NCBI GenBank assembly: GCA_023269615.1
Contig: JAHFSY010000003.1
Span: forward strand, 87,665-151,664
Reading direction: 5' to 3'
Length of the DNA: 64,000 nt
Origin: Verrucomicrobiota bacterium
Lineage (GTDB): Bacteria > Verrucomicrobiota > Verrucomicrobiia > JABWAM01
Part shown: one piece after another, positions 10,145-64,000 of the stretch
Numbering within the stretch: position 1 is the stretch's first letter
How the letters are laid out: each line of letters begins with the position of its first letter
Notes under the pieces: generated by a model
Told to the model about the DNA's origin: nothing
Databases searched by the model: none
Seen by the model: only the letters and a program-made list of their open reading frames with translations
Made by a program: the position numbers and the translations under genes

Positions 10145-10149
10145 CTGAC

Positions 10150-10209
10150 GTAGCCGAACTCGCAAGAGTTTGGCGGCAGGGGATCCGCGTTCTGGCGAAC
10201 GCAGCTACA
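10150..10209. repeat. REP-like palindromic element (TGTAGC...GCGTTCGCCAGAACGCGGATCC family), copy A
   Basis: The arm 'ggatccgcgttctggcgaacgcagctaca' is the reverse complement of the arm seen at 33005 and 34575. Located between the convergent ends of nifS and dxr. Confidence 0.5.
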
Positions 10210-11498: not shown

Positions 11499-11545
11499 TG
11501 TCCTGTTAATCTTGGAAATCCAGTCAATCCTGTCAAAAAATCCGA
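11499..11545. repeat. Solo copy of the CCTGTCA/AATCCTGTCAAAAA repeat family
   Basis: 'gtcctgttaatcttggaaatccagtcaatcctgtcaaaaaatcc' shares the AATCCTGTCAAAAA(T)TCC core with the right IR of the GxxExxY cassette at 59075..59089. Confidence 0.35.
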
Positions 11546-12951: not shown

Positions 12952-12952
12952 G

Positions 12953-12990
12953 AGGAGAATGAAGAATGAAAAATGAAGAATGAAAAATTA
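12953..12990. repeat. GAATGAA octamer-repeat element (AATGAAGA/AATGAAAA tandem), copy R1
   Basis: 'gagaatgaagaatgaaaaatgaagaatgaaaaatta' lies immediately 5' of the transporter start codon. Confidence 0.6.
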
Positions 12991-13080
12991 GAAATTATCC
13001 TGAAACAAACAGGGGTCGCGGACGGCCACGTGAAACGTGGTGAACATCGCCTCTCACATTTGGATTCCACGCTCTGCGTT

Positions 13081-20696: not shown

Positions 20697-21485
20697 ATGA
20701 AACGTTTCGCGAGCAAGGCGGTGATCGTGACCGGGGCCGGAAGCGGCCTCGGTCGCGCCGTCGCGCTTCGCGTGGCCAAGGAAGGAGGCTCCGTCGTGGC
20801 CGCGGACTTGAACGCCGACGCACTGGGAAAACTCGCGGCCGGGGTTTCGGAACCTGGCGTGCGCATTCACACGGTTGCGTGTGATGCCGGTGAGCCCACG
20901 ACGGGACAACGCCTGGCCGATGCTGCAATCAAGGAGTTTGGGAGGATCGATGGCTTCGTTCCGTGCGCGGGCATCATCCGCTTCAAGCCCGTCACAGAAC
21001 TTGATCTTGCCCAATGGGACTCAGTGATGAACCTCAATCTGCGTGGCGCATTTTTTGCCGTGCAGGCAGTTGCCAACACCATGATCGCGCGGGGATGCGT
21101 CGGGTCCATCATCAACATTTCATCGACATCGGGCGACGGACCGCGTCCCGACTGTGCGGATTACGGAATCAGCCGCGCGGGGATCAACCACATGACGCGC
21201 ACCTATGCGTTGAAGCTGGCGCCGAAGGGAATCCGCGTCAATGCGGTGAGTCCCGGCGTGATCGAAACGGCGATGTGGACGCAGGTGGATCGCGAGCGCG
21301 GGGCGATGCTTGGATTGAAGCCCGGGGAATTGATCCGGAAAATGGAGCAGGAAATTCCGATGGGACGCGTGGGAACGGCGGACGAAGTCGCCTCGCTCAT
21401 CGCATTCCTGCTCTCGGAGGAATCATCCTACGTGACGGGCCAGATCATCACGATTGATGGCGGCTACAAACTGAACCATGCGTGA
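20697..21485 (+). CDS. SDR-family NAD(P)-dependent oxidoreductase (paralog 2, collinear with the SDR at 17035)
   Basis: Nearly collinear with the other SDR ('VVAADLNADAL', 'IDGFVPCAGIIRF', 'YGISRAG'). Confidence 0.85.
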   Translation: MKRFASKAVIVTGAGSGLGRAVALRVAKEGGSVVAADLNADALGKLAAGVSEPGVRIHTVACDAGEPTTGQRLADAAIKEFGRIDGFVPCAGIIRFKPVTELDLAQWDSVMNLNLRGAFFAVQAVANTMIARGCVGSIINISSTSGDGPRPDCADYGISRAGINHMTRTYALKLAPKGIRVNAVSPGVIETAMWTQVDRERGAMLGLKPGELIRKMEQEIPMGRVGTADEVASLIAFLLSEESSYVTGQIITIDGGYKLNHA

Positions 21486-21487
21486 GC

Positions 21488-21538
21488 AAATGAAGGCAAA
21501 TGAAGAATGAAAAATGAAGAATGAAAAAATAGAACTGA
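21488..21538. repeat. GAATGAA octamer-repeat element, copy R2
   Basis: 'aaatgaaggcaaatgaagaatgaaaaatgaagaatgaaaaaatag' lies immediately after the SDR stop. Confidence 0.6.
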
Positions 21539-21625
21539 AAGACTCGGCGGAATATTTTTCGTGCTGGATCATCCGTTAGGCGAATGGGATAGCAGAATAA
21601 GCTGGGACATTTTTCATTTATTTTT

Positions 21626-23020
21626 ATGCGCATCGCATACCTGCCATTTTACGTGAATTACTACGAGGGCATCTGCCCGGATTTTCCGCGCGAGAAGACG
21701 GAAGCGGCCCGGCGTTGTGCCGGCGTGCTGGCGAAGCATGGCGAGCTGGTCTGGGATGGAAAGTTGATTTGCGACGTCGCGCAGGCGGAGGCCGCGGGAA
21801 AAGCGCTGGCCGGCCAGCAGCTCGATTGCGTGGTGGTTTTCACGAGCATCGCGGTATTTGGCGGAATTCCGTGGGCTGCGTTGAAGCACATTCAAGCGCC
21901 CATCCTCATCTGGAACGCGCAGGCGATCCCGAGTGTGGGGAAGGGCTACACGATGGTGGAGATCGTGCGCAACACGGGGCAGATCGGGACGCAGGCCCTC
22001 GCCAATACGCTTCTGCGCGAGGGGAGATGGTTCCGCGTGGTGACGGCGTATGAGAAAAGCCCGCGGACCGCGGCGGAACTCAAAAAGTTTTTCGGAGTCA
22101 TCCACGCCGTCTCTGCCGTGAAACGGGCCCGCCTACTCGCCGTGGGCGAATCGTTTCCGATGATGACGGATATTCTCATGGACGAGGCCGACCTTGCGAA
22201 ACACATCGGGGCAAGTGTCACGCATGTTTCAAACGCGGAACTCACCAGCCGTTACGAGTCGGTGCCCGATGGAGCCGTGAAAAAGACCATGCTTGAGATG
22301 AGGAATTCAAACCAGGTGAAGGAGTTGACGGAGGACGAGATTGTGCGCTCGTCGCGCCTTTGCGCGAGCCTCGACTCGCTGGTCGGGGAACATCGTGCCG
22401 ATGCGGGCACGCTCAATTGTCATGTGGGGGTTTGTTTGAGAAATCCAAAAATCGGCGTCACCGCGTGCTACAGCCTGGGTGTACAGAACAGCCAGGGACG
22501 TCCGTTCACCTGCACCGGGGACCTGCCGACGGCGGTGGCGATGCTGTTGCTCAAAAAAATGACGGGCATTGCGATGTACACCGAGGTGCAGGTGATGGAT
22601 GAGAAGCGGCGTGCGATCGTGATTGCGAATTCCGGCGAAGGCGAGGAAGGCATCCGCCGTCCCGGCTCCAAATCGCAGGTGCGCGGCAACACGAATTTCA
22701 AGGGGGTTCATGGGCGCGGCGCTTCGTTCGCGTATGCGTTGAAACCCGGTCCCGCCACGGTCATCAGCTTCACGCCTTCGCCGAAGAGCGCGAAGCCGTT
22801 CCGGCTCATCGTTGCCGAGGGGGAGATCTTGAAGGAGACATTGCCCGATGCCGGCGCGCTGGCCGGATTTTTTCGCTTTGCCCATGCCGACCTTCACACG
22901 GGTTACACGCGCTGGCTCGAGGCGGGTGCCGTGCACCACGCGGGAACCACCACGGGCCACTGGGCGCGTGAGCTTGCCGCGGCTGCGGAATTGCTGAACA
23001 TCGAATGCGTCCAAATCTGA
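21626..23020 (+). CDS. L-arabinose/L-fucose isomerase-family protein
   Basis: 464 aa. The N-terminal domain is arabinose-isomerase-like ('GESFPMM') and the C-terminus resembles the FucI/AraA C-terminal domain. Confidence 0.55.
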   Translation: MRIAYLPFYVNYYEGICPDFPREKTEAARRCAGVLAKHGELVWDGKLICDVAQAEAAGKALAGQQLDCVVVFTSIAVFGGIPWAALKHIQAPILIWNAQAIPSVGKGYTMVEIVRNTGQIGTQALANTLLREGRWFRVVTAYEKSPRTAAELKKFFGVIHAVSAVKRARLLAVGESFPMMTDILMDEADLAKHIGASVTHVSNAELTSRYESVPDGAVKKTMLEMRNSNQVKELTEDEIVRSSRLCASLDSLVGEHRADAGTLNCHVGVCLRNPKIGVTACYSLGVQNSQGRPFTCTGDLPTAVAMLLLKKMTGIAMYTEVQVMDEKRRAIVIANSGEGEEGIRRPGSKSQVRGNTNFKGVHGRGASFAYALKPGPATVISFTPSPKSAKPFRLIVAEGEILKETLPDAGALAGFFRFAHADLHTGYTRWLEAGAVHHAGTTTGHWARELAAAAELLNIECVQI

Positions 23021-23025
23021 TCATG

Positions 23026-24141
23026 AAAAAACAAATCATTCTTCCGCAGGTCGAGTTGAACATGGAAAGCTGCACGGTCGTGCGCTGGCTGGTGAAGGCC
23101 GGCGACGCCGTGAGGGCCGAGCAGCCGATCATGGAAGTTGAAACGCAAAAAGCCGTGGTGGAGGTTCCGTCCTCCGACGCCGGTTTCATCCGCAAACTCT
23201 GCGTGAAGGAAGGAGACTCGATTGGTGAGAAAGCGTTGCTCTGCATCGTCACCGACGCGGCCGACGAGCCGTTTGATTCTGAAGCTCCGCAGGCTGTAGC
23301 CGCGGTCGTTGACCGCGGTGGATCGGAAAGACCGCGGTCAACGACCGCGGCTACAGAGGAAGGCGGCGGAATCAAGGCCGCGCCCGCTGCGCGCAAGCTT
23401 GCAAAAGATCTCGGCGTTGATCTGGGAAGCGTGAAGGGCACCGGCCCGGGCGGAAGAATCACCGTCGAGGATGTGCAGGCATTTGATCCGAAGCTCCGTG
23501 CTTCCGTGTCCTCCGTCGTTGATTTCGTATCCCGGGTTGCAGGGGATTGGAATCCGCTTCCTGCTTCCCGCATCGCCCTCAACGCCCAGATGACAAAATC
23601 GCTTGCGGAGATTCCGCAGATCCACATCGTGCGACAACTGGATGTTGCGGCGATTTCAGTCAAGGCCGAGGGCGTCACCTTCACGCACCGGCTCGTTTGT
23701 GCCGTTGCCGCGGCGCTGGTGCGTCATCCTGCGCTTCGCATGGTCCTTGATCGCGATCGCGTGAAGACGGAACCCGTGAGCGTGGCGGTGGCGATGGACA
23801 CGCCGCGCGGACTGGTGGCGCCCGCGTTGCGGAATGCTGACAAACTTTCCCTGCAGCAGGTTGCCGCGGCGACCAAGGATTTTCGTGCGCGCGCCGAGGC
23901 GGGGACGCTGAAGCGCGACGAACTGGTGAACGCGCCTTTTGCGATCACCAACCTCGGAATGCTGGGGGTGGATTTCTTCAGCGCGTTTGTGTTTCACGGG
24001 CAGACCGCGGTCCTTGCCGTGGGGCGTTCGGTCGGGGGCAAGGCATGGTTCAGCCTTGCCGTGGACCATCGCATTGTGGATGGCGCGGAGGGGGCGAGAT
24101 TCCTGGAGACGCTGCAGCAGCAAATGCAAAATGCAGAATGA
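23026..24141 (+). CDS. 2-oxoacid dehydrogenase E2 (dihydrolipoamide acyltransferase): lipoyl domain, PSBD and catalytic domain
   Basis: Lipoyl domain with lipoyl-Lys in the variant block 'EVETQKAVVEV'. PSBD 'ARKLAKDLGVDLGSVKGTGPGGRIT'. Catalytic 'DHRIVDGAEGARFL'. Confidence 0.8.
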   Translation, partial: KKQIILPQVELNMESCTVVRWLVKAGDAVRAEQPIMEVETQKAVVEVPSSDAGFIRKLCVKEGDSIGEKALLCIVTDAADEPFDSEAPQAVAAVVDRGGSERPRSTTAATEEGGGIKAAPAARKLAKDLGVDLGSVKGTGPGGRITVEDVQAFDPKLRASVSSVVDFVSRVAGDWNPLPASRIALNAQMTKSLAEIPQIHIVRQLDVAAISVKAEGVTFTHRLVCAVAAALVRHPALRMVLDRDRVKTEPVSVAVAMDTPRGLVAPALRNADKLSLQQVAAATKDFRARAEAGTLKRDELVNAPFAITNLGMLGVDFFSAFVFHGQTAVLAVGRSVGGKAWFSLAVDHRIVDGAEGARFLETLQQQMQNAE

Positions 24142-24155
24142 AGAATGCAAAATGA
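24121..24155. repeat. GAATGAA/AATGCAG repeat element, copy R3, at the E2/sucC-like junction
   Basis: 'caaatgcaaaatgcagaatgaagaatgcaaaatgag' encodes the E2 C-terminus 'QMQNAE' and the sucC-like start. Confidence 0.6.
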
Positions 24156-25363
24156 GATTACTTGAACATCAAGCGAAGAAGTTGCTGGCTCAATTTGGCC
24201 TGGCTTTCACGCGGTCGGTGGTCGTGAGCAGTCCCGAAGCCGCTGTTGATGCGGCAAAACAGCTGCAGAATTTTTCATTTTTCACTTTGCATTCTGCATT
24301 TGTTCTCAAGGCGCAGGTGCCTTTTGGTGGCCGGGGGAAGGCGGGTGCGGTTCGTTTTGCTGTGACGCCCGACGATGCGCGACGCGAGGCCGGAGAATTG
24401 CTCGCCATGAATTTGCGCGGGGTCCAGGTCACGAGCGTTTCCGTCGAGGAGAAGCTGGCGTTCACGAGGGAATTTTATGCGGGCGTGGCATGGGACACGC
24501 AGGCGAAACTGCCTGTTGCATTGCTCAGCATCGCCGGTGGTGTGGAGGTTGAGCAATCTTCGCATGAGAACCTGGCGCGACGGGCCTTTGATCCATGGAT
24601 GGGACTTTCCCCTTACATCGGGCGCGAGATGGCGGCGAGTGTCGGGCTGAAGGGAAGGACTCTCTCGGGCATGGGTGCGTTCCTTGAAAAACTCGCGCAG
24701 GCATTTCTTGCCTGTGATGCCGTGACGATGGAAATCAATCCTGTCGTGGAAACGACCGATGGCGTGCTCATCGGGCTCGATGCGCATGTGGAGATCGAGG
24801 ATGACGCCGCGTATCGGCAGAAGGAACGCCTCGCGGCCATTGGTGACATTGCGCCGACGGCGACGGGTCGCGCGCCCACGGCGCTGGAATTGGAATCGCA
24901 GAGGATCGACGCCATGGATCACCGCGGCGTGGCCGGGCGCGTGGTGGAATTTGATGGAGACCTGGCCCTTTTGATCGGCGGAGGTGGCGCGAGCCTGACC
25001 GTGTTCGACGCGGTGAGGCGCCACGGCGGCAAGCCCGCGAATTATTGCGAGGTCGGCGGCAACCCCACGGAAGAAAAGGTGGCGGCGTTGACCGCCCTGC
25101 TGCTTTCAAAAAAGGGCGTCAAAAAAATGGCTGTCATCATGAACGTGGTCAACAACACGCGTGCGGACGTGATGGCCCGGGGGGTTTTGATGGGAATTGA
25201 AAAAGCGGGACGAAAGCCGTCCGAGGCGATTTCCGTGTTTCGCATTCCCGGTTCGTGGGAACAGGAGGCGCGGGATCTCCTGGCCAAGGCGGGTGTCCGG
25301 GCGCTCGGGCGTGAAATCTCACTCGATGAGTCAGCTAGATTGGCGGTGCAACATGTTGCTTGA
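24152..25363 (+). CDS. Succinyl-CoA synthetase beta-subunit-like ATP-grasp ligase (ADP-forming acid-CoA ligase beta)
   Basis: 'MRLLEHQAKKLLAQFGL' N-terminus and 'VLKAQVPFGGRGKAG'. Carries a 12-aa in-frame insertion 'QNFSFFTLHSAF' encoded by an inverted copy of the GAATGAA/AATGCAG repeat. Confidence 0.75.
   Translation: MRLLEHQAKKLLAQFGLAFTRSVVVSSPEAAVDAAKQLQNFSFFTLHSAFVLKAQVPFGGRGKAGAVRFAVTPDDARREAGELLAMNLRGVQVTSVSVEEKLAFTREFYAGVAWDTQAKLPVALLSIAGGVEVEQSSHENLARRAFDPWMGLSPYIGREMAASVGLKGRTLSGMGAFLEKLAQAFLACDAVTMEINPVVETTDGVLIGLDAHVEIEDDAAYRQKERLAAIGDIAPTATGRAPTALELESQRIDAMDHRGVAGRVVEFDGDLALLIGGGGASLTVFDAVRRHGGKPANYCEVGGNPTEEKVAALTALLLSKKGVKKMAVIMNVVNNTRADVMARGVLMGIEKAGRKPSEAISVFRIPGSWEQEARDLLAKAGVRALGREISLDESARLAVQHVA
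24265..24308. repeat. Inverted copy (R3b) of the GAATGAA/AATGCAG repeat lying in-frame inside the sucC-like CDS
   Basis: 'cagaatttttcatttttcactttgcattctgcatttgttctc' is the reverse complement of the R3/R4-type sequence. Confidence 0.55.
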
Positions 25364-26243
25364 TCCAAAAGCGGGAATCCTCGTCCAGGGCATCACGGGC
25401 CGCGAAGCCACCGGAATGGTGGAGGACGCGCTTGCGTACGGAAGCCGGATTGTCGCCGGGGTCACGCCGGGAAAAGGAGGCCAGCAGGTTCACGGTGTGC
25501 CGGTGTTCGACACCGTGGCTGAGGCGGTCGCAAAGCATCAGCCGACGGTGAGCGTGATTTCCGTTCCCGCGCCGGCGGTTCTTGATGCGGCGCTGGAGTC
25601 GTTTGCGCACGGGATCCGGCTGTGCCTCATCATGTCGGAGCGCGTGCCACGACTCGATACGTGCAAGCTGGTGGAGGCCGCGAAACGCGTGGGATGCACG
25701 GTCATCGGGCCCAACACGCTGGGGCTCATCTGTCCGGGCGTTGCGAAGCTGGGCACGATCGGCGGGCGTCTCGACAACGTCAAACAGTCGTTCAAGTCCG
25801 GGAAGGTGGCAGTGCTTTCGCGGAGCGGGGGGATGACGACGGAGATCGCAAGTTTTCTCACAAGCCGCGGCATCGGGCAGAGCATCGCGATTGGCGTGGG
25901 AGGCGACCCGATCATCGGCGCAAATTTCACGGAGCTGATCGAGTTGCTGGAGAATGATTCCTCGACGGACGCCGTGGTGATCTACGGGGAACCGGGCGGG
26001 GCGGCGGAGGAGCAGCTGGCGGAGAGGTTGAAAAAGAAACCGAGTCGCCTGCGCATCAATGCTTTCCTGTCGGGTCGTTTCGTGGATGATCTGGAGGGAG
26101 TGCGCTTCGGCCATGCGGCGGTGATCGTGGAGGGAGGCCGCGGCTCGGTGCGGGGCAAGGCGGCGGCGCTGCGCGAAGCGGGCGTGTTTGTGGCGGATGC
26201 GTTTGATGACATCTTAAAAGGACTGCAGGCAAATGCAGAATGA
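25353..26243 (+). CDS. Succinyl-CoA synthetase alpha-subunit-like (CoA-binding, phospho-His) ligase subunit
   Basis: 'ILVQGITGREA' CoA-binding block, 'CTVIGPNTLGLI' and phospho-His block 'FGHAAVIVEGGRGS'. Confidence 0.75.
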   Translation: MLLDPKAGILVQGITGREATGMVEDALAYGSRIVAGVTPGKGGQQVHGVPVFDTVAEAVAKHQPTVSVISVPAPAVLDAALESFAHGIRLCLIMSERVPRLDTCKLVEAAKRVGCTVIGPNTLGLICPGVAKLGTIGGRLDNVKQSFKSGKVAVLSRSGGMTTEIASFLTSRGIGQSIAIGVGGDPIIGANFTELIELLENDSSTDAVVIYGEPGGAAEEQLAERLKKKPSRLRINAFLSGRFVDDLEGVRFGHAAVIVEGGRGSVRGKAAALREAGVFVADAFDDILKGLQANAE

Positions 26244-26262
26244 AGAATGAAGAATGAAAAAT
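26230..26262. repeat. GAATGAA/AATGCAG repeat, copy R4 (left inverted repeat of the 4HB cassette)
   Basis: 'caaatgcagaatgaagaatgaagaatgaaaaat' encodes the sucD-like C-terminus 'QANAE' and the 4HB start 'MKNEK'. Confidence 0.6.
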
Positions 26263-26612
26263 ATGATCTGGTTCCGAGGACCAAGGCATTCGCATTGCGA
26301 GTGATCAAAATGTATCTGTCTTTGCCAAATACCACGTTGGCCCAGGTTTTGGGAAAACAGGTGTTGCGATCAGGAACATCCGTGGGAGCAAATTATCGGG
26401 AAGCAAACCGTGGCCGATCGAAAGCGGAGTTCATATCCAAGATGGGAGATTGCCTCAAGGAACTCGACGAAACGGATTATTGGCTCGATTTGCTGGTGGA
26501 GTCCGCGCTGGTTTCAAAATCAAAAATGGAGGAATTAATTGACGAAACCCATCAACTTACCGCCATCCTTATCACCATCATCAACAAAGCCAAAAAGAAT
26601 GATGAGCAATAA
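26247..26612 (+). CDS. Four-helix-bundle protein (TIGR02436 / 23S rRNA intervening-sequence protein family)
   Basis: 121 aa. 'VLRSGTSVGANYREANRGRSKAEFISKMGDCLKELDETDYWLDLL' matches the conserved 4HB core. Flanked by inverted GAATGAA repeats. Confidence 0.75.
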   Translation: MKNEKYDLVPRTKAFALRVIKMYLSLPNTTLAQVLGKQVLRSGTSVGANYREANRGRSKAEFISKMGDCLKELDETDYWLDLLVESALVSKSKMEELIDETHQLTAILITIINKAKKNDEQ

Positions 26613-26662
26613 AATGAAGGTCAGCCATTCTTCATTTTTCACTTTTCATTCTTCATTTTCTT
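26612..26662. repeat. GAATGAA repeat, copy R5 (right inverted repeat of the 4HB cassette, opposite orientation)
   Basis: 'ttcttcatttttcacttttcattcttcatttt' is the reverse complement of the forward repeat. Confidence 0.6.
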
Positions 26663-27640
26663 ATGAGCACACGACAACTCAGTATGGCGGAAGCCATCAA
26701 CGAAGCGATCCGTCACGAGATGCGGCGCGATCCCAACATCATCCTGCTCGGGCAGGACATCGGAAACTACGGCGGCACGTTCGGCGTGTACAAGGGGCTG
26801 TTCGATGAGTTCGGCCCCGAGCGCGTGCGCGATGGACCGCTTTGCGAAGCGGCGACGGCCGGATTCGGCGTCGGGCTTGCGATCAGCGGAATGCCGACGA
26901 TCGTGGAGATCGAGTTCATGGATTTCATGACGCTTGCATCCGACGCGATGTGCAACCAGGCGGCGAAGATGCGTTACTTCTTCGGCGGCCAGGTGAAGGT
27001 GCCCATGATCATCCGCACGCCGATCGTGAACCGCCTCGGCCTTGGCGCGCAGCACTCGCAAAGCCTTGAGGCATGGATGATGCACATTCCCGGCTTGCGC
27101 GTCATCATTCCCTCGAACGCAGCTGATGCGAAGGGGCTGTTGCTGACAGCGATCCGCGAAGGAAATCCGACGGTGTTTGTCGAGCATGTACGCTTGTATC
27201 CGTCAAAGTCCCCCGTGGATGATGCCGACACGCCGATTCCGCTCGGCAAGCTGCGCGTTGCGCGCGAGGGAAAGGATGTGACGATTGCGACCTACAGCGG
27301 CATGGTGAAGCCTTCGCTGGATGCGGCGATCAATCTTGCGAACGATGGCATCGAGTGCGAAGTGCTCGACCTGCGCACGCTTGCGCCGCTCGATCGCGAG
27401 GGAATTTGCGCATCCGTGAAAAAAACCGGGCGGCTTGTCGTGGCGCATGAGGCGGTGAAGACCGCGGGGGCGGGGGCGGAGATTGCGCAGACAGCGATGG
27501 AGGGCGCGTTCGATTATCTGCAGGCGCCGATCCTGCGCGTGGCGTCGAAAGACCTGCCGATCCCGACCGGGAAACTGCAGGACCTCGTTTATCCGAACAG
27601 TGCGGATGTGGAGACGGCCGTGAGAAAGGTGATGGAATAA
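26663..27640 (+). CDS. 2-oxoacid (pyruvate/acetoin-type) dehydrogenase E1 component beta subunit
   Basis: Transketolase-like pyrimidine-binding and C-terminal domains ('EIEFMDFM', 'RTPIVNRLGLGAQHSQS'). Confidence 0.85.
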   Translation: MSTRQLSMAEAINEAIRHEMRRDPNIILLGQDIGNYGGTFGVYKGLFDEFGPERVRDGPLCEAATAGFGVGLAISGMPTIVEIEFMDFMTLASDAMCNQAAKMRYFFGGQVKVPMIIRTPIVNRLGLGAQHSQSLEAWMMHIPGLRVIIPSNAADAKGLLLTAIREGNPTVFVEHVRLYPSKSPVDDADTPIPLGKLRVAREGKDVTIATYSGMVKPSLDAAINLANDGIECEVLDLRTLAPLDREGICASVKKTGRLVVAHEAVKTAGAGAEIAQTAMEGAFDYLQAPILRVASKDLPIPTGKLQDLVYPNSADVETAVRKVME

Positions 27641-28621: not shown

Positions 28622-29460
28622 AAACCATCCGGTTCGACCAGATTCGCGACGCGATCGCCGGGTTGTGCCAACGGGCCAACTTCGAGCTGACTGCGGACAT
28701 GCGGGCCGCGCTGCAGGCGGGTGTCGAGCGGGAAACAAGCCCGTTGGCGCAAAATACGTTGAAGAGGATCCTGCAGAACGCCGACATCGCGAAGGAGCGT
28801 TCCCTGCCCATGTGCCAGGACACGGGGCTCGTCATCGTGTTTGTCGACGTGGGGCAGGACGTTCATATCGAGGGGGGCACGCTGCGCGACGCGATCAACG
28901 AGGGGGTGCGCCACGGATACAAGGAAGGTTTTCTACGCGCGTCGGTGACGGGCGACCCGATCCAGCGCAAGAACACGGGAGACAACACGCCCGCCGTACT
29001 CCACACGGAAATTGTTCCGGGGGATGCATTGCGTCTCCAACTTCTTGCAAAGGGCGGAGGCTGTGAAAACATGAGCCGCTTCAAGATGCTGACGCCGGCT
29101 GACGGGCGCGATGGAATCGTAAATTTCGTTGTTGAAACCGCAAAGCTTGCCGGCCCGAACGCGTGTCCGCCGATTGTGGTGGGCGTAGGCATCGGTGGAT
29201 CGTTCGAGTATTCCGCTGTGCTGGCGAAGAAATCATTGCTGCGCAAGATCGGCGAACGCAGCGCGCTCCAGCACGTGGCGGAACTGGAGGCGGACATTTT
29301 GAAAAAGGTGAATGAAAGCGGGATTGGGCCGCAGGGTTACGGCGGAAAGACCACCTCATTGGCCGTGCAGATCGAGGTGGCGGCGTGCCACGTGGCGAGC
29401 CTGCCGGTGAGCGTCAACATCGAGTGTCATGCGCATCGTCACCAGGAAGTGACGCTGTAA
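28618..29460 (+). CDS. Fe-S hydro-lyase alpha subunit (class I fumarate hydratase / L(+)-tartrate dehydratase TtdA family)
   Basis: 'MCQDTGLVIVF', 'NACPPIVVGVGIGG' and 'IGPQGYGG' blocks shared with TtdA/FumA N-terminal domains. Confidence 0.85.
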   Translation: MKTIRFDQIRDAIAGLCQRANFELTADMRAALQAGVERETSPLAQNTLKRILQNADIAKERSLPMCQDTGLVIVFVDVGQDVHIEGGTLRDAINEGVRHGYKEGFLRASVTGDPIQRKNTGDNTPAVLHTEIVPGDALRLQLLAKGGGCENMSRFKMLTPADGRDGIVNFVVETAKLAGPNACPPIVVGVGIGGSFEYSAVLAKKSLLRKIGERSALQHVAELEADILKKVNESGIGPQGYGGKTTSLAVQIEVAACHVASLPVSVNIECHAHRHQEVTL

Positions 29461-29495
29461 ATGAAGAATGAAGAATGCAAAATGAAGAAAACGGA
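29461..29495. repeat. GAATGAA/AATGCAG repeat, copy R6, at the hydro-lyase alpha/beta junction
   Basis: 'atgaagaatgaagaatgcaaaatgaagaaaacg'. Confidence 0.55.
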
Positions 29496-30045
29496 AATTA
29501 ATTTGCCGCTGGCGGTTGATGTCGCGAAGGCGTTACGGATAGGCGATGAGGTTGAGTTAAACGGGTATGTTTATACCGGGCGGGACCAGGCTTGCGCGCG
29601 GATGTTTGAAATGCTCCAGGGCGGCGAAAAACTACCGATCGAACTGGAGGGGCAGTTGATTTATTTTGTCGGGCCGTCGCCTGCGAAGCCGGGGGAAGTG
29701 GTTGGATCTGCCGGGCCGACCACGAGCGGGCGCATGAATCCGTTCCTGCCGAAATTTCTGGGCCTCGGGCTGCGCGGATTCATCGGCAAGGGATATCTCT
29801 CGCAGGAGGTGAAGGACGCGCTGGTGAAACATGGCGGCGTTTATTTTGGCGCGATTGGAGGCACGGGCGCGCTGCTGTCTGAATGCATTGAATCGGTCGA
29901 GGTGATCGCATTCCCCGAGCTGCTCAGCGAGGCAATCCATCGGATGAAATTCAAAAGGTTTCCCGCCGTGGTGTTGAATGACGCCAGCGGCGGAGATCTG
30001 TATGCACAGGCGATGAAGTCGGAACAAACAACAGAAAATCCATGA
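29482..30045 (+). CDS. Fe-S hydro-lyase beta subunit (class I fumarate hydratase C-terminal / TtdB family)
   Basis: 'GPTTSGRMNPF' and 'GKGYLSQEV' match TtdB/FumA C-terminal domain blocks. Confidence 0.8.
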   Translation: MKKTEINLPLAVDVAKALRIGDEVELNGYVYTGRDQACARMFEMLQGGEKLPIELEGQLIYFVGPSPAKPGEVVGSAGPTTSGRMNPFLPKFLGLGLRGFIGKGYLSQEVKDALVKHGGVYFGAIGGTGALLSECIESVEVIAFPELLSEAIHRMKFKRFPAVVLNDASGGDLYAQAMKSEQTTENP

Positions 30046-33004: not shown

Positions 33005-33075
33005 TGTAGCCGCGTTCGCCAGAACGCGGATCCCTGGGCAAAAGCAGAAACCACGCTCTGGCGAGCGTGGCTACA
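33005..33075. repeat. REP-like palindromic element (TGTAGCCGCGTTCGCCAGAACGCGGATCC arms), copy B
   Basis: The two arms are reverse complements of each other, separated by a 17-nt spacer. Located upstream of fumC. Confidence 0.55.
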
Positions 33076-33156
33076 GGGCATCTGGCAGCCTGAAAGATTT
33101 CTTGGTGTCGCGGCGTTCTGATGCTTCAATTCTTTCCCGTAAATTCCATTTCAATC

Positions 33157-34569
33157 ATGAAAACGACCCCCACTTCCGCAAAACAAACCACACGAACCGA
33201 GAGCGACAGCATGGGCACGATTGAAGTGTCCACGAGTGTCTACTGGGGCGCGCAGACCGAGCGCTCGCTGCTGCATTTTGACATTGGACGCGACGTGATG
33301 CCGCCGGAGCTGATTCGTGCGCTTGGGATTTTGAAAAAGGCCGCGGCGCTGGTGAACCGCGACCTCGGCAAGTTACCGGAGGACAAGACGCGGCTCATCG
33401 CACAGGCTGCTGATGAAGTCATTGCCGGCAAGCTCGACGACCAGTTTCCGCTGCGCATCTGGCAGACGGGCAGCGGCACGCAGACCAACATGAATGCGAA
33501 CGAGGTGATTTCCAACCGCGCCATCTCGATCGCAGGTGGGGAGATGGGTTCCAAGAAACCCATTCATCCCAATGACCACGTGAACATGTCGCAGTCATCG
33601 AACGACACATTTCCCACGGCGATGCACATTGCGGCGGCCGAGCGCATGCACAACGACCTGATTCCCGCGATCCAGGGTGTCGCGGACGCGATCAATGCCA
33701 AGGCAAAGGAGTTTGCAGACGTGGTGAAGATTGGACGGACCCATCTGCAGGATGCGACACCGGTCACGGTGGGGCAGGAGATGTCCGGCTGGGCAAACAT
33801 GCTGGAGCGGGACATCGTGCGTTTGAAGCTGGGGCTTGACGGCATTTACGACCTGGCGATCGGGGGCACGGCGGTGGGGACCGGCCTGAACGCGCATCCG
33901 GAATTCGCGCAACGCGCGGCCGCGAAGATCGCGGAGTTGACGGGACTGCCGTTCCGGTCACACCCCAACAAATTCACGGCGCTGTCGGCGCACGATGAAC
34001 TGGTGTTTGCGCATGGGGCGATCAACACGCTGGCGGGATCGCTGATGAAGATTGCGAATGACATCCGCTGGCTGGCGTCCGGTCCGCGTTGCGGGCTGGG
34101 AGAGCTGAACATTCCGGAGAACGAACCGGGCTCCTCGATCATGCCGGGCAAGGTGAATCCCACCCAGTGCGAGGCGATGACGATGGTCGCCGTGCAGGTG
34201 CATGGAAACAACGCGGCCATTTCATTTGGCGGGTCGCAGGGGAACTTCGAGTTGAACGTGTACAAGCCGGTGATGATCCACAACTTCCTGCATTCGGTCA
34301 CCCTGATCCACGACGCGTGCCATGGCTTTGTGGATTACATGATCAAGGGCATCACGCTGAACCGCGCCCGCATTGACGCTTCGGTGAAAAACTCGCTGAT
34401 GCTCGTGACGGCGTTGAATCCGCATATTGGGTATGACAAATCCGCCAAGATCGCGCACACCGCTTTTGTGGATGACAGCAGCCTGCGCGAAGCGTGCGTG
34501 AAGCTGGGATTCCTGAGCGGTGAGGATTTCGACAAGTTTGTGAAACCGGAGCAGATGACGCATCCGTGA
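33157..34569 (+). CDS. fumC: Class II fumarate hydratase (aspartase/fumarase superfamily)
   Basis: '[20 protein letters not shown]' signature and N-terminal '[18 protein letters not shown]'. Confidence 0.85.
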
Positions 34570-34574
34570 GTGAT

Positions 34575-34637
34575 TGTAGCCGCGTTCGCAAGAACGCGGA
34601 TCCGGAGGGGAACCACGCTCTGGCGAGCGCGGCTACA
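34575..34637. repeat. REP-like palindromic element, copy C
   Basis: 'tgtagccgcgttcgcaagaacgcggatcc...ccacgctctggcgagcgcggctaca', immediately downstream of the fumC stop. Confidence 0.55.
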
Positions 34638-37907: not shown

Positions 37908-37914
37908 GAAAGAG

Positions 37915-38096
37915 GGGACAGGTGACAGGAGACAGGAGACAGGAGTCAGAATTCGGAATCCAGATGCGAGGTGTCATTGAAGTTGGACATGCTTTGATTT
38001 CAGAAGCTGGGTTTCGTAACAGCGCATCTTCATTTGACGGTTCGGAATTCATGCCACGTCACCCTTCTGTCGCCTGTCACCTGTCACCTGTCACCT
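37915..38096. repeat. Inverted-repeat element built from tandem 7-mers (GACAGGN x3.5), CCTGTCA family
   Basis: Left arm 'gacaggtgacaggagacaggagacagg' at 37915..37945. Right arm 'cctgtcacctgtcacctgtcacctgg' at 38065..38096, the reverse complement with 2 mismatches. Confidence 0.55.
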
Positions 38097-38115
38097 GGGC
38101 ACCAGGGTCCGCCCG

Positions 38116-58469: not shown

Positions 58470-58482
58470 AAGGGGAGTTTTT

Positions 58483-58568
58483 GACAGGATTTACAGGATG
58501 GACAGGATTTTTCGGAGGATGAAGCCGGATTGAACAGGATTTCAGAAAAGCCCGGGCGGGCTTTTCTG
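58483..58568. repeat. Left 85-bp inverted repeat of the GxxExxY cassette (CCTGTCA-family, ends in a GC hairpin)
   Basis: 'gacaggatttacaggatggacaggatttttcggaggatgaagccggattgaacaggatttcagaaaagcccgggcgggcttttctg'. Confidence 0.7.
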
Positions 58569-58634
58569 GGGTCGTTTTTAAGAAGGCGGAAATGGATTGC
58601 GCCTGACAGGAATCCAATATACATATGTATATGT

Positions 58635-59030
58635 ATGACAAATATGGACGATTTGACTGGAGCGATCATCGGGAGCGCGATGAAGGTGCATCGGGCGCTT
58701 GGACCCGGATTTCTTGAATCAGTTTACCAGCAGGCACTTCATCATGAATTGCGGAAGAACGGGCATCATTCGGAGAAGGAGAAGGCAATGGCAGTCTATT
58801 ACGATGATGCGGTGGTTGGCGATTTTGTAGCTGATCTGATTGTTGACCAACTGATCATTCTGGAGCTGAAGGCCGTTCAGAAACTGGCGGTCAACCATGA
58901 AGTCCAGCTGGTCAACTATTTGAAGGCCACTGGATTGGATATCGGTCTCGTCTTCAATTTCGGAGGCGGCAGTCTTGAGTTTAAAAGGAAATTTCGAACA
59001 CCGCAGAAAAGCCCGTCCGGGCTTTTCTGA
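58635..59030 (+). CDS. GxxExxY protein (TIGR04256; PD-(D/E)XK nuclease-like)
   Basis: 'LTGAIIGSAMKVHRALGPGFLESVYQQAL...VDQLIILELKAV' has the GxxExxY motif and PD-(D/E)XK-like D...E-K blocks. Its C-terminus is encoded by the right IR. Confidence 0.7.
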   Translation: MTNMDDLTGAIIGSAMKVHRALGPGFLESVYQQALHHELRKNGHHSEKEKAMAVYYDDAVVGDFVADLIVDQLIILELKAVQKLAVNHEVQLVNYLKATGLDIGLVFNFGGGSLEFKRKFRTPQKSPSGLF

Positions 59031-59089
59031 AATCCTGTCAATCCGGCTTCATCCTCCGAAAAATCCTGTCCATCCTGTAAATCCTGTCA
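59005..59089. repeat. Right 85-bp inverted repeat of the GxxExxY cassette (about 97 percent identical to the reverse complement of the left repeat)
   Basis: 'cagaaaagcccgtccgggcttttctgaaatcctgtcaatccggcttcatcctccgaaaaatcctgtccatcctgtaaatcctgtc'. Confidence 0.7.
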
Positions 59090-59100
59090 AAAATTCCCCG

Positions 59101-62100
59101 TCACCTCGCCGAACGGACCAGGACCTTCTTCAAAAAGCGCGCGGTGTGGGAGGCTTTGACCCTGGCCACCTCCTCGGGTGTGCCTGCGGCCACGACGCGG
59201 CCTCCGCCTTCTCCGCCTTCGGGGCCAAGGTCCACCACGTAATCGGCTTCGGCGATCAGGTCCATGTTGTGCTCGATCACGATCGCTGTATGCCCTCCAT
59301 CCACCAGCTGGTGCAGCACGCCGATCAATTTCTCGACATCCGCAAAATGCAATCCAATCGTCGGCTCCTCCAGCACGTAAAGATTTCCCTTCGCAGCAGG
59401 CCCGCGTCCACGCATCAGCTCGCTCACCAGTTTCATCCGTTGCGCCTCGCCACCCGAGAGGGTGGGGCTGCTCTGGCCAAGCGCAAGATAGCCGAGCCCG
59501 GTATCCGCGAGAAGCTGGAGCGGTTGCGCGATGCGACGGTCGAACGAGAAAAATTCCACAGCCTCCCCGGCCGACATTTCAAGCACCTGCGCGATATTAC
59601 GGTCACGATACAGAATTTCACGAGTCTCAGTCCCGAAACGCGCCCCGCCGCATGTTTCGCATGGCACATAGGCGTCCGGCATGAAACTCATCGCCAGTTT
59701 CACGCGCCCCTGCCCCTCGCACGTGTCGCAGCGCCCGCCCGGGACGTTGAATGAAAAACGGCTTGCCGTGTAGCCGCGGATCCTGGCGGCGGGCGTGGAG
59801 GCGAAGAGCCTCCGGATTTCATCCCAGATGCCGAGGTAGGTGGCCGGGCAGGAACGGGGCGTCTTGCCAATGGGAGCCTGGTCCACCTCGTAGGCGGAAG
59901 CGATGAGGCTCGAGCCCTTGAGAATTTTCCGCCATGGTGACGATGGATGCCTGAGCCCGTGCAGCAACGTCCCTCGCACCAGTGAGGATTTGCCCGCCCC
60001 GCTTACGCCCGTGACCAGCGTCAACCGTCCCGACGGAAACCGGACACGAACCTTTTTCAAGTTGTGGAGGGTGGCTCCCGCAACTTCGAACCATTCAGCC
60101 GTCTTCAGATCGCGTCGTTTTCCACGCAGGGGATGCCGCATCGGATTGGACAGGAACTCAAGCGTCCTTGAATGTGAAATCTCAAATTTCAAATTTGAAA
60201 TTCTGGGCCTCCCAGCCCAGACGACCTGTCCACCCTGTTTGCCCGCGCCGGGGCCGAGGTCAATGATCCAATCGGCGCGGCGCATCGTTTCTTCATCATG
60301 CTCGACCACGAGAAGGGAATTGCCCCGGGCCTTGAGACGGTCGAGGACGCGGAGCAGCCGTTCGTTGTCCCGGCTGTGCAGGCCGATCGTCGGCTCGTCA
60401 AGCACGTAGAGGACACCACGCAGGTTGGAACCGAGTTGCGAAGCAAGACGGATGCGCTGGGCCTCGCCACCCGAGAGCGTGACGGCGGCGCGGCCGAGGC
60501 CGAGGTAATCGAGGCCGACCTCGCCCATGAAGCGCAGGCGCTCCACGATTTGCGGGACGATGTCACGCGCAAGTTCCCGCTCGCGTCCTGAAAGGCGAAG
60601 CCGTGAAAACCATTCGCATGCGGCGCGTGAGCTCATGGCGTTGAGCTCCGGGGGCGCGAGATCACCGACGCGAACATGGAGCGAGTCGGTTTTCAACCGC
60701 GCCCCGTGACAGCGCTCGCAGGGGTGGGCGTCCTCATCGGATGTCCGCCGCTCGATGCGCAGGTCGCGTTCCGTTTCCTCCTCTCCATCGAGGTCTTCAA
60801 GGGCGTCTTTGCCCCAGGTCACGCCGTAGCCGAAACAATCCGGACACCAGCCGGCTGGGCTGTTGAATGAAAAATCGCGGGGGTCGAGCGGCGAAAACGA
60901 CCGTGCACAGGACGGGCATGTGCGCAAAGTGCTGATGACCCGTTCGCTGTCACCGCGGGAATCGGAAAGGACGATCATGCCACGGCCCGCGCGAAGCGCA
61001 TCGCGGATCCGAGAGGCGTTGCGGGTGTTTTTTTCAAAAAGCCCATAATCGAGCTCAATCGTGTGCTCGACATAGCGCGCCAGTTTTTTTCCTCCGAGCA
61101 GGCGCGGGGTTTCGATGAAGCGACCATCCACGCGCAGGCGACCGATGCCGTGGGCGGAAGCCCATTGAATGACTTCATCGTGAAACCCTTTTCGTCCACG
61201 CACCACCGGGGCGAGGATGTGGAGCGGCTGGCGGCGCAGGGCACTGAGGATCTGGTTCACCGCGGCATCCTCGGTTTGTTCGCGGATGGGCAGCTTGCAG
61301 CGCGGGCAATGTTGAACGCCGACCTTCGCGTAGAGGAGACGGATGAAGTGGTAGGCTTCCGTGATCGTGGCCACCGTGGACTTCCAGCCGCCGCGCGTGA
61401 CGCGCTGCTCGATGGCGACGGTGGGCGGGATGCCCTCGACGCGATCCATGTCGGGGCGCGGCATCTGCTCGACGTACTGGCGCGCGTAGGTGGACATGCA
61501 GTCGAGGAAGCGCCGCTGTCCCTCGGCAAAGACGAGATCGAAGGCAAGCGTGGATTTGCCGCTGCCGCTGAGGCCCGTGATGACGACAAACTGGTCGCGG
61601 GGGATTGAGATCGAGAGATTTTTGAGATTGTGTTCGCGAGCATTTGTAATGCGAATCTCTCCGCTATCCGCAATTGTAGGGCAACGGGCCCCGTTGCCTC
61701 TCCGTCGGACGGCAAGCGGGCCGCTTGCCCTACATAAGAGCGGACGAAGATATTTCCCGGTGTGCGAGGAAGGATGTTCGGCGATGGATTCGGGGGTGCC
61801 GCAGGCGACCACCTCGCCGCCGCGGTCGCCGGCCTCGGGGCCGAGGTCAACCAGCCAGTCGGCGCATTTCACGAGCTCCATGTTGTGCTCGATGACGAGC
61901 GCGGTGTGGCCCTGGTCCACGAGCTGCTGGAGGACATCCACGAGGCGGCGGACGTCATCGAAATGCAGTCCCGTGGTGGGTTCGTCAAAGATGAGAAGCG
62001 CCCGTTGCGGGGTTTTGCGCGTGAGCGATTCGGCGAGAAATCCGCAGAGTTTCAATCGTTGCGCCTCGCCGCCGGAGAGCGTGTTGATGGGCTGCCCCAG

Positions 62101-64000
62101 TCGCAGGTAATCCAATCCCACGCGATCGAGCAGCTGCAAAGTGGCGACCGCCTGCCGTTGCAGGCGGGCCCATGTCTTTCGTTCCGAGTCGTTGTTGCCG
62201 TGGGAGGGGAGCGATTGCAGAAGGCGCGTGGCGTCGGCAATCGTGGAAGCAAGAAGATCGGCCACGTTTTTTCCGCCGAGTCGGACCTTGAGAATTTCGT
62301 CGCGGAAACGCCTCCCGTGACAATCGGGGCATTCGATCTGGACGTCCGGCAAAAATTGCATCTCCACCTTTTCGTATCCAAGCCCGCCGCATCGCGCGCA
62401 ACGGCCTTCGCCTGCATTGAACGAAAAGCTGCCGGCGGTGAAACCGTTCCGGCGGCTCTCATCGAGGGCGGCTAGCAGCTCGCGAATCGAATCCCATGCG
62501 CCGACGTACACGGCGGGATTGGAGCGCGACGTACGCCCGAGCGGGGCTTGGTCCACAAGGATGACTTCGCCCAGCGCTTCGTGGCCTGCAACGCTTTCGC
62601 AACGTCCGGGTTCGGACGAGGATTTGCCGCGCAGCGCCTGCAGTTTTTCGTAAAGGACGCGGTGCACAAGCGTGGACTTGCCGCTGCCGGAGACACCGGT
62701 GACGCAGACGAATCTCCCGAGGGGAATATCCACGGAGACGCGTTTGAGATTGTTTTCCGCAGCTCCCCGGATCGAAAGCCTCGGCGTTGTTGCATTCACC
62801 GGGCGTGTCTTTCCCGGGAGAGGGATTTTCTTATGGCCCGAAAGATAATCGAGCGTCAGGCTTTGAGATTTGAGATGTGAGATCGTCGGCTGGCCCTGCC
62901 AGACGACCCTGCCGCCCAGCTCGCCGGCGCCCGGGCCAAGGTCCACGAGATGGTCGGCGGCCCGGATGACGGAGGGTTCGTGCTCCACGACGACCAGCGT
63001 GTTGCCCCGGTCGCGCAGGGCGTGGAGCACGCGGACGAGGCTGTCCACGTCGCGCGGATGGAGCCCCACGCTGGGCTCGTCGAGGATGAAGAGCGTGTTC
63101 ACCATGGCTGAGCCGAGGCAGGTGGTAAGGTTGACGCGCTGGACTTCACCGCCCGAGAGAGTGCGTGCCGACCGGTCGAGCGTGAGGTAATCGAGCCCGA
63201 CATCGCCGAGCAGCCGAAGGCGTGAAATGATTTCGCGAATGACGAGGGCGCAGGGATCTCCCCGGGGGGTGACAAACGCTTCCACGGTGGAGCGCAAGTC
63301 GCGGATGGACATGCCGTAGAGGGCGCCGATCGTTTTTCCCGCGAGACGGTAGTTGAGGGTTTCGGGCTGGAATCGCGTCCCCCCGCATGTCGCGCAGGTG
63401 CGATAAGTGCGATAACGCGAGAGCAGTACACGCATGTGCATCTTGTAGCTTTTGGATTCGAGCCAGCGAAAATAGCCGCGCACGCCGTACCATGGGCCAT
63501 AGCCGGTGTCACCGGGATCCCCGGGGTCGCCTTCCATCACCCATGTGTGGTGTTGCGCGGGGAGGCGGTTGAAGGGAGTATCCGGATTGACGCGCCGACG
63601 CCTGCACCACTTGAGAAGGTCATCCTGGCATTCCGCCGAGACGCCGCCCTGCCACGGCTTGATCACGCCCCCGCGCAATGAGAGGGAGCGGTTTGGAATC
63701 ACGAGCGCCTCGTCAATGTCGATGGTGCGGCCGAAGCCCCGGCATTTCGGACACGCACCGACGGGGCTGTTGAACGAAAAGAGCGAAGGCGTGGGTTCGG
63801 AAAAAGAACGGTTGCATGATGCGCAATGACGTCCGCGCGAAAACGGATACGACTTGCGGCTGTTGAGCGTGATGACCCAGAGATGTCCTTTGCCTGCACG
63901 AAAGGCGGTTTCGGCGGCCTCGATGAACCGGCCGCGCTGCGACGTGGAAAGCGTGATGCGGTCCTGGATGACGGGCAACAGTGAGGGTGGAGATTTTACC
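59101..64000 (-). CDS. uvrA: Tandem-fused double UvrA (excinuclease ABC subunit A-A): two complete UvrA units in one ORF; the 5' end lies beyond the window
   Basis: Three Walker A sites ('VTGVSGSGKSTLV', 'ITGLSGSGKSTLAFD', 'VTGVSGAGKSSL'), four LSGGE signatures and multiple CxxC zinc modules. Unit 1 ends '...SHTGKYLRPLL' at the canonical UvrA C-terminus. Unit 2 begins 'IRITNAREHNLKN' at the canonical N-terminus. There is no stop codon or start codon between them. Confidence 0.85.
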   Translation of the reverse strand, partial: VKSPPSLLPVIQDRITLSTSQRGRFIEAAETAFRAGKGHLWVITLNSRKSYPFSRGRHCASCNRSFSEPTPSLFSFNSPVGACPKCRGFGRTIDIDEALVIPNRSLSLRGGVIKPWQGGVSAECQDDLLKWCRRRRVNPDTPFNRLPAQHHTWVMEGDPGDPGDTGYGPWYGVRGYFRWLESKSYKMHMRVLLSRYRTYRTCATCGGTRFQPETLNYRLAGKTIGALYGMSIRDLRSTVEAFVTPRGDPCALVIREIISRLRLLGDVGLDYLTLDRSARTLSGGEVQRVNLTTCLGSAMVNTLFILDEPSVGLHPRDVDSLVRVLHALRDRGNTLVVVEHEPSVIRAADHLVDLGPGAGELGGRVVWQGQPTISHLKSQSLTLDYLSGHKKIPLPGKTRPVNATTPRLSIRGAAENNLKRVSVDIPLGRFVCVTGVSGSGKSTLVHRVLYEKLQALRGKSSSEPGRCESVAGHEALGEVILVDQAPLGRTSRSNPAVYVGAWDSIRELLAALDESRRNGFTAGSFSFNAGEGRCARCGGLGYEKVEMQFLPDVQIECPDCHGRRFRDEILKVRLGGKNVADLLASTIADATRLLQSLPSHGNNDSERKTWARLQRQAVATLQLLDRVGLDYLRLGQPINTLSGGEAQRLKLCGFLAESLTRKTPQRALLIFDEPTTGLHFDDVRRLVDVLQQLVDQGHTALVIEHNMELVKCADWLVDLGPEAGDRGGEVVACGTPESIAEHPSSHTGKYLRPLLCRASGPLAVRRRGNGARCPTIADSGEIRITNAREHNLKNLSISIPRDQFVVITGLSGSGKSTLAFDLVFAEGQRRFLDCMSTYARQYVEQMPRPDMDRVEGIPPTVAIEQRVTRGGWKSTVATITEAYHFIRLLYAKVGVQHCPRCKLPIREQTEDAAVNQILSALRRQPLHILAPVVRGRKGFHDEVIQWASAHGIGRLRVDGRFIETPRLLGGKKLARYVEHTIELDYGLFEKNTRNASRIRDALRAGRGMIVLSDSRGDSERVISTLRTCPSCARSFSPLDPRDFSFNSPAGWCPDCFGYGVTWGKDALEDLDGEEETERDLRIERRTSDEDAHPCERCHGARLKTDSLHVRVGDLAPPELNAMSSRAACEWFSRLRLSGRERELARDIVPQIVERLRFMGEVGLDYLGLGRAAVTLSGGEAQRIRLASQLGSNLRGVLYVLDEPTIGLHSRDNERLLRVLDRLKARGNSLLVVEHDEETMRRADWIIDLGPGAGKQGGQVVWAGRPRISNLKFEISHSRTLEFLSNPMRHPLRGKRRDLKTAEWFEVAGATLHNLKKVRVRFPSGRLTLVTGVSGAGKSSLVRGTLLHGLRHPSSPWRKILKGSSLIASAYEVDQAPIGKTPRSCPATYLGIWDEIRRLFASTPAARIRGYTASRFSFNVPGGRCDTCEGQGRVKLAMSFMPDAYVPCETCGGARFGTETREILYRDRNIAQVLEMSAGEAVEFFSFDRRIAQPLQLLADTGLGYLALGQSSPTLSGGEAQRMKLVSELMRGRGPAAKGNLYVLEEPTIGLHFADVEKLIGVLHQLVDGGHTAIVIEHNMDLIAEADYVVDLGPEGGEGGGRVVAAGTPEEVARVKASHTARFLKKVLVRSAR
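61675..61734. repeat. REP-like inverted doublet (two 19-bp palindromes GGCAACGGGCCCCGTTGCC and GGCAAGCGGGCCGCTTGCC inside TGTAGGG...CCCTACA) encoding the UvrA-UvrA linker
   Basis: Verified by hand against the ORF translation: this segment encodes 'CRASGPLAVRRRGNGARCPT' between the two UvrA units. Confidence 0.7.

Follow-up and report, generated by a model that had tools for sequence, protein, structure and literature searches.

Within a 64,000-nucleotide stretch of a Verrucomicrobiota genome assembly (GCA_023269615.1, contig JAHFSY010000003.1, positions 87,665 to 151,664; hereafter the window, numbered from its first letter), we examined a gene for a tandem UvrA, in which two UvrA modules are joined by a linker encoded largely by a doublet of GTAG-type repetitive extragenic palindromes (REPs). 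Very probably, this doublet, a REP doublet forming hairpins (REPIN), arrived in a uvrA gene that was already fused, replaced codons of the existing linker and has been carried since as a tolerated passenger. This reading draws on the anatomy of the doublet, its membership in a repeat family, the age of the fusion, the finding that no relative has the element and the linker length.

The tandem UvrA occupies a minus-strand frame that runs from position 63999, open to the window edge, to a stop codon at 59101-59103 (1632 codons). The two remaining minus-strand frames contain stops throughout the region. Alignment to the NCBIfam profile PRK00349, in which residue 9 of the protein in the window corresponds to profile position 203, and to the full-length ortholog P0001 places ~195 N-terminal residues outside the window. 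Because these residues of module 1 are off-window, the whole protein is ~1.83 thousand amino acids (kaa) long, which corrects an initial estimate of "about 1.9 kaa or more". NCBIfam UvrA models match the protein in three stretches, with both modules in one uninterrupted frame. Module 1, which is partial (61735-64000, minus strand, open frame), ends ...SHTGKYLRPLL; PRK00349 positions 203-941 align to its residues 9-755, and Pfam UvrA_DNA-bind matches residues 96-160. Module 2, together with the stop codon at 59101-59103, spans 59101-61656 (minus strand) and ends ...SHTARFLKKVLVRSAR. Its best matches among solved structures are canonical UvrA chains (9gxk, 2r6f, and 3pih; E = 1e-235 to 1e-247).

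The two modules differ in their domain content. Module 2 contains the UvrB-binding domain (UvrA_inter, 55 bits), falls ~115 residues short of solved UvrAs (9gxk, 2r6f) at the insertion domain and gave no recognizable match to the insertion (DNA-binding) domain in a Pfam domain search. For module 1, we judged the domains from P0001, which matches both UvrA_inter (27 bits) and UvrA_DNA-bind (59 bits). By these profile matches, the modules are not identical copies and differ at the insertion domain. Each visible module has a GxSGxGKS Walker A motif, an LSGGE signature and an hhhhDEP Walker B motif; in module 1, the Walker A motif belonging to the first ATPase domain is outside the window. The original prediction of two UvrA modules in one open reading frame (ORF) was confirmed, with module 1 partial in the window and module 2 without a recognizable insertion domain.

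We interpret the gene as encoding a tandem (double) UvrA of the type typical of Verrucomicrobiota, a single chain with two UvrA ATPase modules. Such a protein is presumably equivalent to the damage-sensing UvrA dimer of nucleotide excision repair, with the two halves covalently joined. Chlamydiae also possess a double UvrA, and the double-UvrA model NF001885 (PRK00635; 1809 aa) is built on the chlamydial protein. The double-length UvrA that this model describes in the Planctomycetes-Verrucomicrobia-Chlamydiae group likewise has two UvrA modules in a polypeptide of ~1.8 kaa, but the closest relatives of the protein described here are verrucomicrobial. As it scores 992.6 bits against NF001885, far below the equivalog cut-off of 3054, the tandem UvrA falls outside the orthologous group of that model. 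A search of the literature for a named class of duplicated UvrA returned nothing usable.

The joint between the modules consists of 26 codons (61657-61734, minus strand) that encode CRASGPLAVRRRGNGARCPTIADSGE between ...SHTGKYLRPLL and the start of module 2. As originally described, it contains neither a stop nor an internal start: no in-frame stop, ATG, GTG, or TTG occurs within the 26 codons. All of this joint apart from six codons is a GTAG-type REP doublet (61675-61734) with arms at 61675-61698 and 61711-61734 and a spacer at 61699-61710, the heads (TGTAG and CTACA) pointing outwards. Its 60 nt form exactly 20 in-frame codons (756-775), beginning with TGT at 61734-61732 as codon 756, and the predicted peptide is CRASGPLAVRRRGNGARCPT. 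The arms are inverted, 24 nt each, 83% complementary and 12 nt apart, and in each of them a perfect 9-bp stem with a 1-nt loop adjoins TGTAG at offset 0. The window has two matches to this hairpin pattern, against an expectation of 0.05. The RNA of the doublet folds at -49.3 kcal/mol (z = -6.1, with none of 200 shuffles as good) and the DNA at -22.2 kcal/mol (z = -4.9), a structure that is far beyond chance. The two inverted palindromic units proposed for this segment, and their likeness to doublets of the REP or bacterial interspersed mosaic element (BIME) type, were therefore confirmed by the GTAG head, the hairpins, the inverted partner and the dispersed repeat family described below. In one respect the doublet departs from what defines REPs, since it lies in frame inside an ORF and is not extragenic. 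No Rfam family matched anywhere in the window at the gathering score, or around the junction at E ≤ 1. The junction shows neither a promoter-like nor a terminator-like site, and, in view of the missing promoter-like signal, we dropped the idea that module 2 is expressed separately from an internal promoter.

To place the fusion in time, we compared the protein with its 120 best database homologs. All 120 are single fused proteins of 1783-2026 aa that contain both modules and are 51-67% identical to the query. They span Verrucomicrobiae, Chthoniobacterales, Udaeobacter, and Terrimicrobium and cover 99-100% of the query, except for P0014 (84%) and P0033, for which no coverage is given. The linkers of these proteins have no sequence in common and cover a wide range of lengths, and in none of the 120 did we detect a peptide derived from the REP in any reading frame. 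At the DNA level, no REP was present in the linkers of the four closest orthologs, which are non-palindromic in three (P0001/L095, P0002/L097, and P0004/L094) and a tandem of the heptamer AAAGCTC in the fourth (P0003/L093). Similarly, a GTAG hairpin was absent from the junction in all 16 metagenomic loci that span it, of which 12 are fused. Since the homologs are all fused and their linkers are free of REPs, the fusion long predates the element; on this comparison it is ancestral and independent of the REP.

Some metagenomic relatives encode the UvrA modules as separate adjacent genes (L119, L124, and possibly L123). In L119 (291-1104) and L124 (3001-3754), a small ORF for a predicted membrane protein lies between the modules. 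In L123 (3001-3578), an ATG for module 2 comes 2 nt after the stop of module 1, which could reflect a frameshift error. No REP was found at the junction of these three split forms. In a rough neighbor-joining tree built from module 2 with module 1 as the root, which has no support values, the split forms make up one clade nested among the fused forms, and this nesting suggests that they arose by later, secondary fission.

The linkers of the relatives have features of their own. In P0003, at ~4488-4562 of L093, the linker is made up of about eight tandem AAAGCTC-like heptamers whose in-frame translation is SKAQSSEPKAKSSKLKAQG; another kind of repeat thus fills the same linker. The long linkers of four Chthoniobacterales proteins (P0059, P0024, P0040, and P0051) share the motif (S/N)REDGEG(S/P)(R/G)NGS...RSFA..AQ(D/G)D, with EDSEEPRK in P0051. 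The linker DNA of P0059 (L096, 13032-13077) contains a 12-nt inverted repeat, GCGAAGGACCTC / GAGATCCTTCGC, while the fold of the whole linker is not significant (z = -1.3). The Chthoniobacterales motif may represent a different translated palindromic repeat.

Between the conserved anchors DLGPxxG and AREHNL, which flank the junction, the distance is 69 residues here and 69, 70, 72, 67, and 70 residues in P0001, P0002, P0004, P0005, and P0009, respectively. The minimum among 117 homologs is 59 residues, and the tandem UvrA would have 49 without the doublet. Because the spacing equals that of the nearest relatives and would otherwise be shorter than in any of the 117 homologs, we conclude that the doublet replaced ~20 earlier linker codons. 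Judged from these distances, it took the place of previous codons, and was neither an addition to the linker nor the creator of the joint. An insertion could have been compensated by a subsequent deletion, or the codons could have been exchanged in a replacement event. In a linker whose sequence is otherwise free to evolve, the arms are both base-perfect, which suggests that the doublet arrived recently.

We next asked how widely the element occurs, using the pattern TGTAGGGCAANNGGNCCNNTTGCC to scan one genome per prokaryotic species. The scan returned 109 matches in 92 stretches, with ~4 expected by chance. Of the 80 loci with listed titles, 74 were Verrucomicrobiota metagenome-assembled genomes (MAGs), and a single MAG, MFD03346.bin.1.96, contributed more than 20 stretches. 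The family has the general form TGTAGGGCAA(NN)GGCCC(NN)TTGCC, with the variable positions complementary in 96 of the 109 matches. The arms of the uvrA doublet are its two commonest variants, GCGGCCCGC (48 copies) and CGGGCCCCG (18 copies), and the same pair of arms forms doublets with variable spacers of 12-15 nt at five further loci (L020, L041, L077, L084, and L086). Doublets of the family are 56-72 nt long, and lengths that are multiples of three are not favored (8 of 27). By its membership in this family, the uvrA doublet is a genuine REP/REPIN.

Other members of the family also lie in reading frames. In-frame copies occur in genuine genes of the MAGs for an HrpB helicase (L041), between Helicase_C and HA2; a Gln/Glu-tRNA synthetase (L048); a kinase-FGE-sulfatase fusion (L068), between the two domains; and an ETF-QO/acyl-CoA dehydrogenase/ETF fusion (L071/L088). 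Of the three frames in which TGTAG can be read, one holds a TAG stop. This frame is avoided in all of these genes, and the uvrA copy is also read in a stop-free frame. The CRASGPLAV reading of the uvrA doublet recurs in an unannotated ORF in L086. Three properties would explain the survival of the element in uvrA: a length divisible by three, a reading frame that is one of the two free of stops, and a permissive linker as the site. As a tolerated passenger, it would be translated into a peptide predicted to be rich in Gly, Arg, Ala, and Pro.

The family is dispersed through Verrucomicrobiota and is presumably mobilized by a Y1 transposase of the REP-associated tyrosine transposase (RAYT) type. 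In L020, from MAG MFD03346.bin.1.96, a cluster of eight family copies (568-1620) flanks a short ORF with an HVH motif. The ORF is truncated and matches positions 7-89 of the 121 positions of Y1_Tnp with 20.7 bits, below the Pfam cut-off of 23. By this partial match, it looks like a decayed RAYT.

The window itself contains further REP doublets. When we required GTAG with a directly adjoining perfect stem of at least 7 bp, we obtained seven sites, compared to 1.15 in shuffled sequences, and all seven have TGTAG at offset 0. Together with two imperfect partners, they form five doublets of the same architecture, consisting of a TGTAG-hairpin, a short spacer, and a hairpin-CTACA. Four of these belong to a sister family that starts TGTAGC, in agreement with an earlier observation that the window holds another REP family with this start. 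One of the four is in frame. It lies at 23294-23356 in an ORF for an E2 acyltransferase of a 2-oxoacid dehydrogenase (23005-24141, plus strand), has perfect 26-nt arms and consists of 63 nt, or 21 codons, that encode approximately QAVAAVVDRGGSERPRSTTAAT in the linker that connects the lipoyl domain with the E3-binding domain. The Pfam domains on both sides of this doublet are in one frame (residues 10-80, lipoyl; 123-158, E3-binding; and 184-377). Neither a UvrA nor an E2 homolog occurs in the 92 REP-bearing loci of the public genomes, and the family was never caught at the same site elsewhere.

The remaining three of the five doublets are intergenic. One lies between convergent ORFs (10149-10209), one upstream of a fumarase-class lyase gene (33005-33075; gene, 33121-34569) and one starts 5 nt past the stop codon of that gene (34575-34637). 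This fumarase/aspartase-class lyase gene consequently has a TGTAGC-family doublet on each flank. A weak match to the TGTAGC REP at 59759-59792 was rejected as chance, since it encodes a conserved UvrA motif, IRGYTASRFSFN, that is common to P0001.

The original prediction had proposed a different order of events, in which adjacent uvrA paralogs were separate genes until a REP doublet present in, or inserted into, their intergenic spacer became in-frame and fused them, such that the linker would record how the fusion came about. The doublet does account for 20 of the 26 linker codons, REPs are normally intergenic, as are three of the five doublets in the window, and split modules do exist in some metagenomic relatives. 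However, the 120 nearest homologs are all fused and REP-free, the split forms have no junction REP and nest inside the fused forms (in the rough tree, which has no support values), and the spacing of the modules equals that of REP-free relatives. Fused orthologs whose linkers lack the palindrome had been named beforehand as the outcome that would speak against a REP-driven fusion, and this is what the linker DNA of the four closest orthologs showed. We therefore consider it highly improbable that the REP fused the genes. Another concern is that repeats are error-prone in assemblies, such that a mis-assembled or mis-called repeat could have created a false in-frame joint between modules that are really separate or in a gene that is really broken. 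Such an error would have to coincide with fused orthologs that have the same spacing, with arms that match canonical family copies base for base and with a length of exactly 60 nt in frame. It would also leave the independent in-frame doublet in the E2 gene, and the others in genes of other assemblies, to be explained separately. We give an assembly or sequencing artefact scarcely any credence.

One could also suppose that the doublet is kept because it has a function. Its mRNA hairpin (-49 kcal/mol) might pause ribosomes between the modules, the element might be a site of RNA processing or stabilization, or it might modulate UvrA activity and, with it, the mutation rate. The fold is very stable (z = -6.1), and the sequence of both arms is that of the family consensus, amid a linker otherwise free to evolve; a recent insertion explains perfect arms equally well. 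The genes reported to carry REPs are enriched for uvrABCD, recBCD, and polymerase genes (PMC3733652), and the gene described here is a further verrucomicrobial uvrA gene with a REP dimer; yet large modular proteins offer more permissive sites. Moreover, the element is absent from every relative, the same family occurs in frame in unrelated genes, and there is no terminator-like or promoter-like signal at the junction. Retention for function is thus unlikely.

Several observations nevertheless weigh against a REPIN that was recently mobilized into the fused gene and carried there as a passenger. Since the nearest database sequences are 66-67% identical and the best metagenome match is 66% identical across the junction, they allow no comparison of a filled with an empty site. 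The link between the family and a RAYT comes from one truncated, sub-threshold Y1_Tnp-like ORF in L020, and no RAYT-like gene is present in the 64-kb window. Within the window, the sequence variant of the uvrA doublet occurs only at that doublet. Finally, the base-perfect arms that suggest recent arrival could equally be read as selection on DNA or RNA structure.

Translated REPs have been described in this phylum. Di Nocera, De Gregorio, and Rocco (2013; BMC Genomics 14:522, PMC3733652) defined the GTAG REP superfamily, of which intragenic copies are a documented minority, and found the most intragenic GTAG REPs in Opitutus terrae (Verrucomicrobia). In this species, dimers often encode 20-30 in-frame residues, and both uvrA genes carry in-frame REPs or dimers (PMC3733652). 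Oter_2709, annotated as 'excinuclease ABC, A subunit', is a double UvrA of 1995 aa with a single REP at residues 638-644 and a dimer at residues 1601-1623, and the 999-aa uvrA product Oter_3168 is also a REP host (PMC3733652). The same authors proposed flexible linkers or loops as the location of the inserts and speculated on effects on repair and mutation rate (PMC3733652). The O. terrae elements and the doublet described here have in common the phylum and the presence of GTAG-headed hairpin dimers in frame in uvrA. They differ in sequence, as the stem GTAGGGCAA(GC/CG)GGCCC... is absent from the lists in PMC3733652, and in site, as the dimer here makes up most of the inter-module linker and has apparently replaced a previous one. 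The peptide of the E2 doublet in the window (VAAVVDRG...) resembles those of O. terrae GTAG-17 dimers (VAGVVDPG...).

The uvrA doublet also resembles the REPINs mobilized by RAYTs, which likewise consist of two inverted REPs with a short spacer that form one long hairpin (Nunvar et al., 2010, PMC2817692; Bertels and Rainey, 2011, PMC3116915). Shared features are a GTAG head beside the stem, a multi-copy family and compensatory stem variants. A further parallel would be the Y1-transposase-like ORF flanked by family copies, which tentatively points to a RAYT and comes from a related MAG rather than from this genome. Whereas classical REPINs are extragenic and largely species-specific, identical 24-mers occur here across many diverged Verrucomicrobiota MAGs, and the uvrA copy is in a coding frame. 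Rickettsia palindromic elements (RPEs) are longer, with RPE-1 measuring roughly 100-150 bp. As far as they are described in PMC3733652 (citing Ogata et al., 2000), RPEs are likewise palindromic mobile repeats that are tolerated in frame and translated. They come from a different phylum and, by their description rather than by sequence comparison, are unrelated in sequence.

The window also contains other repeats. An ORF of the PD-(D/E)XK nuclease family (PDDEXK_3, 58530-59030) lies directly after the uvrA stop codon, with inverted repeats of ~101 nt at its two ends (58472-58572 and 59000-59099; 95-98% complementary). These repeats hold ACAGGATT-type short repeats and the hairpin AAAAGCCCGGGCGGGCTTTT, and a related sequence occurs at 11508-11543. 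This nuclease unit (58472-59099) may be a small mobile or invertible cassette. Heptamer runs (GAATGAA / AAATGAA / AATGCAG) lie between ORFs over ~17 kb in both orientations, at 12950-12996, 21491-21551, 24115-24161, 26224-26270, and 29452-29498, and, inverted, at 24270-24302 and 26627-26672. These runs may have a regulatory role or represent a further family of repeats. Inverted runs of the heptamers GACAGGA / GACAGGT also occur between ORFs (37913-37951 and 38064-38097), with 33-nt arms that are 88% complementary and ~115 nt apart. Finally, two paralogous ORFs of 262 aa (17035-17823 and 20697-21485) are 3662 nt apart and contain DNA stretches that are 75-80% identical, which indicates that part of a putative sugar-metabolism cluster was duplicated locally.

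Translated REP dimers in verrucomicrobial uvrA genes were known (PMC3733652), and what we add is modest: the replacement of a linker at constant length in an anciently fused double UvrA, with the inter-module linker as a new site for a REP. Since the finding leaves the origin of the double UvrA unexplained, the mechanistic value first attached to the locus is lost. A bolder proposal is that REP doublets are a recurrent source of interdomain linkers in Verrucomicrobiota, replacing old codons at constant length, that their mRNA hairpins aid ordered co-translational folding or tune the output of repair proteins, and that the enrichment in repair genes reflects selection rather than target size; we regard this as a long shot. 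The locus is a clean example, with well-defined limits, of a mobile palindromic repeat that serves as the linker of an essential-type repair protein. Together, the uvrA, E2, and MAG cases extend the 2013 observation in Opitutus to uncultured Verrucomicrobiota and to an unlisted family of REP sequences, with interdomain linkers as the main sites at which these elements survive within genes.

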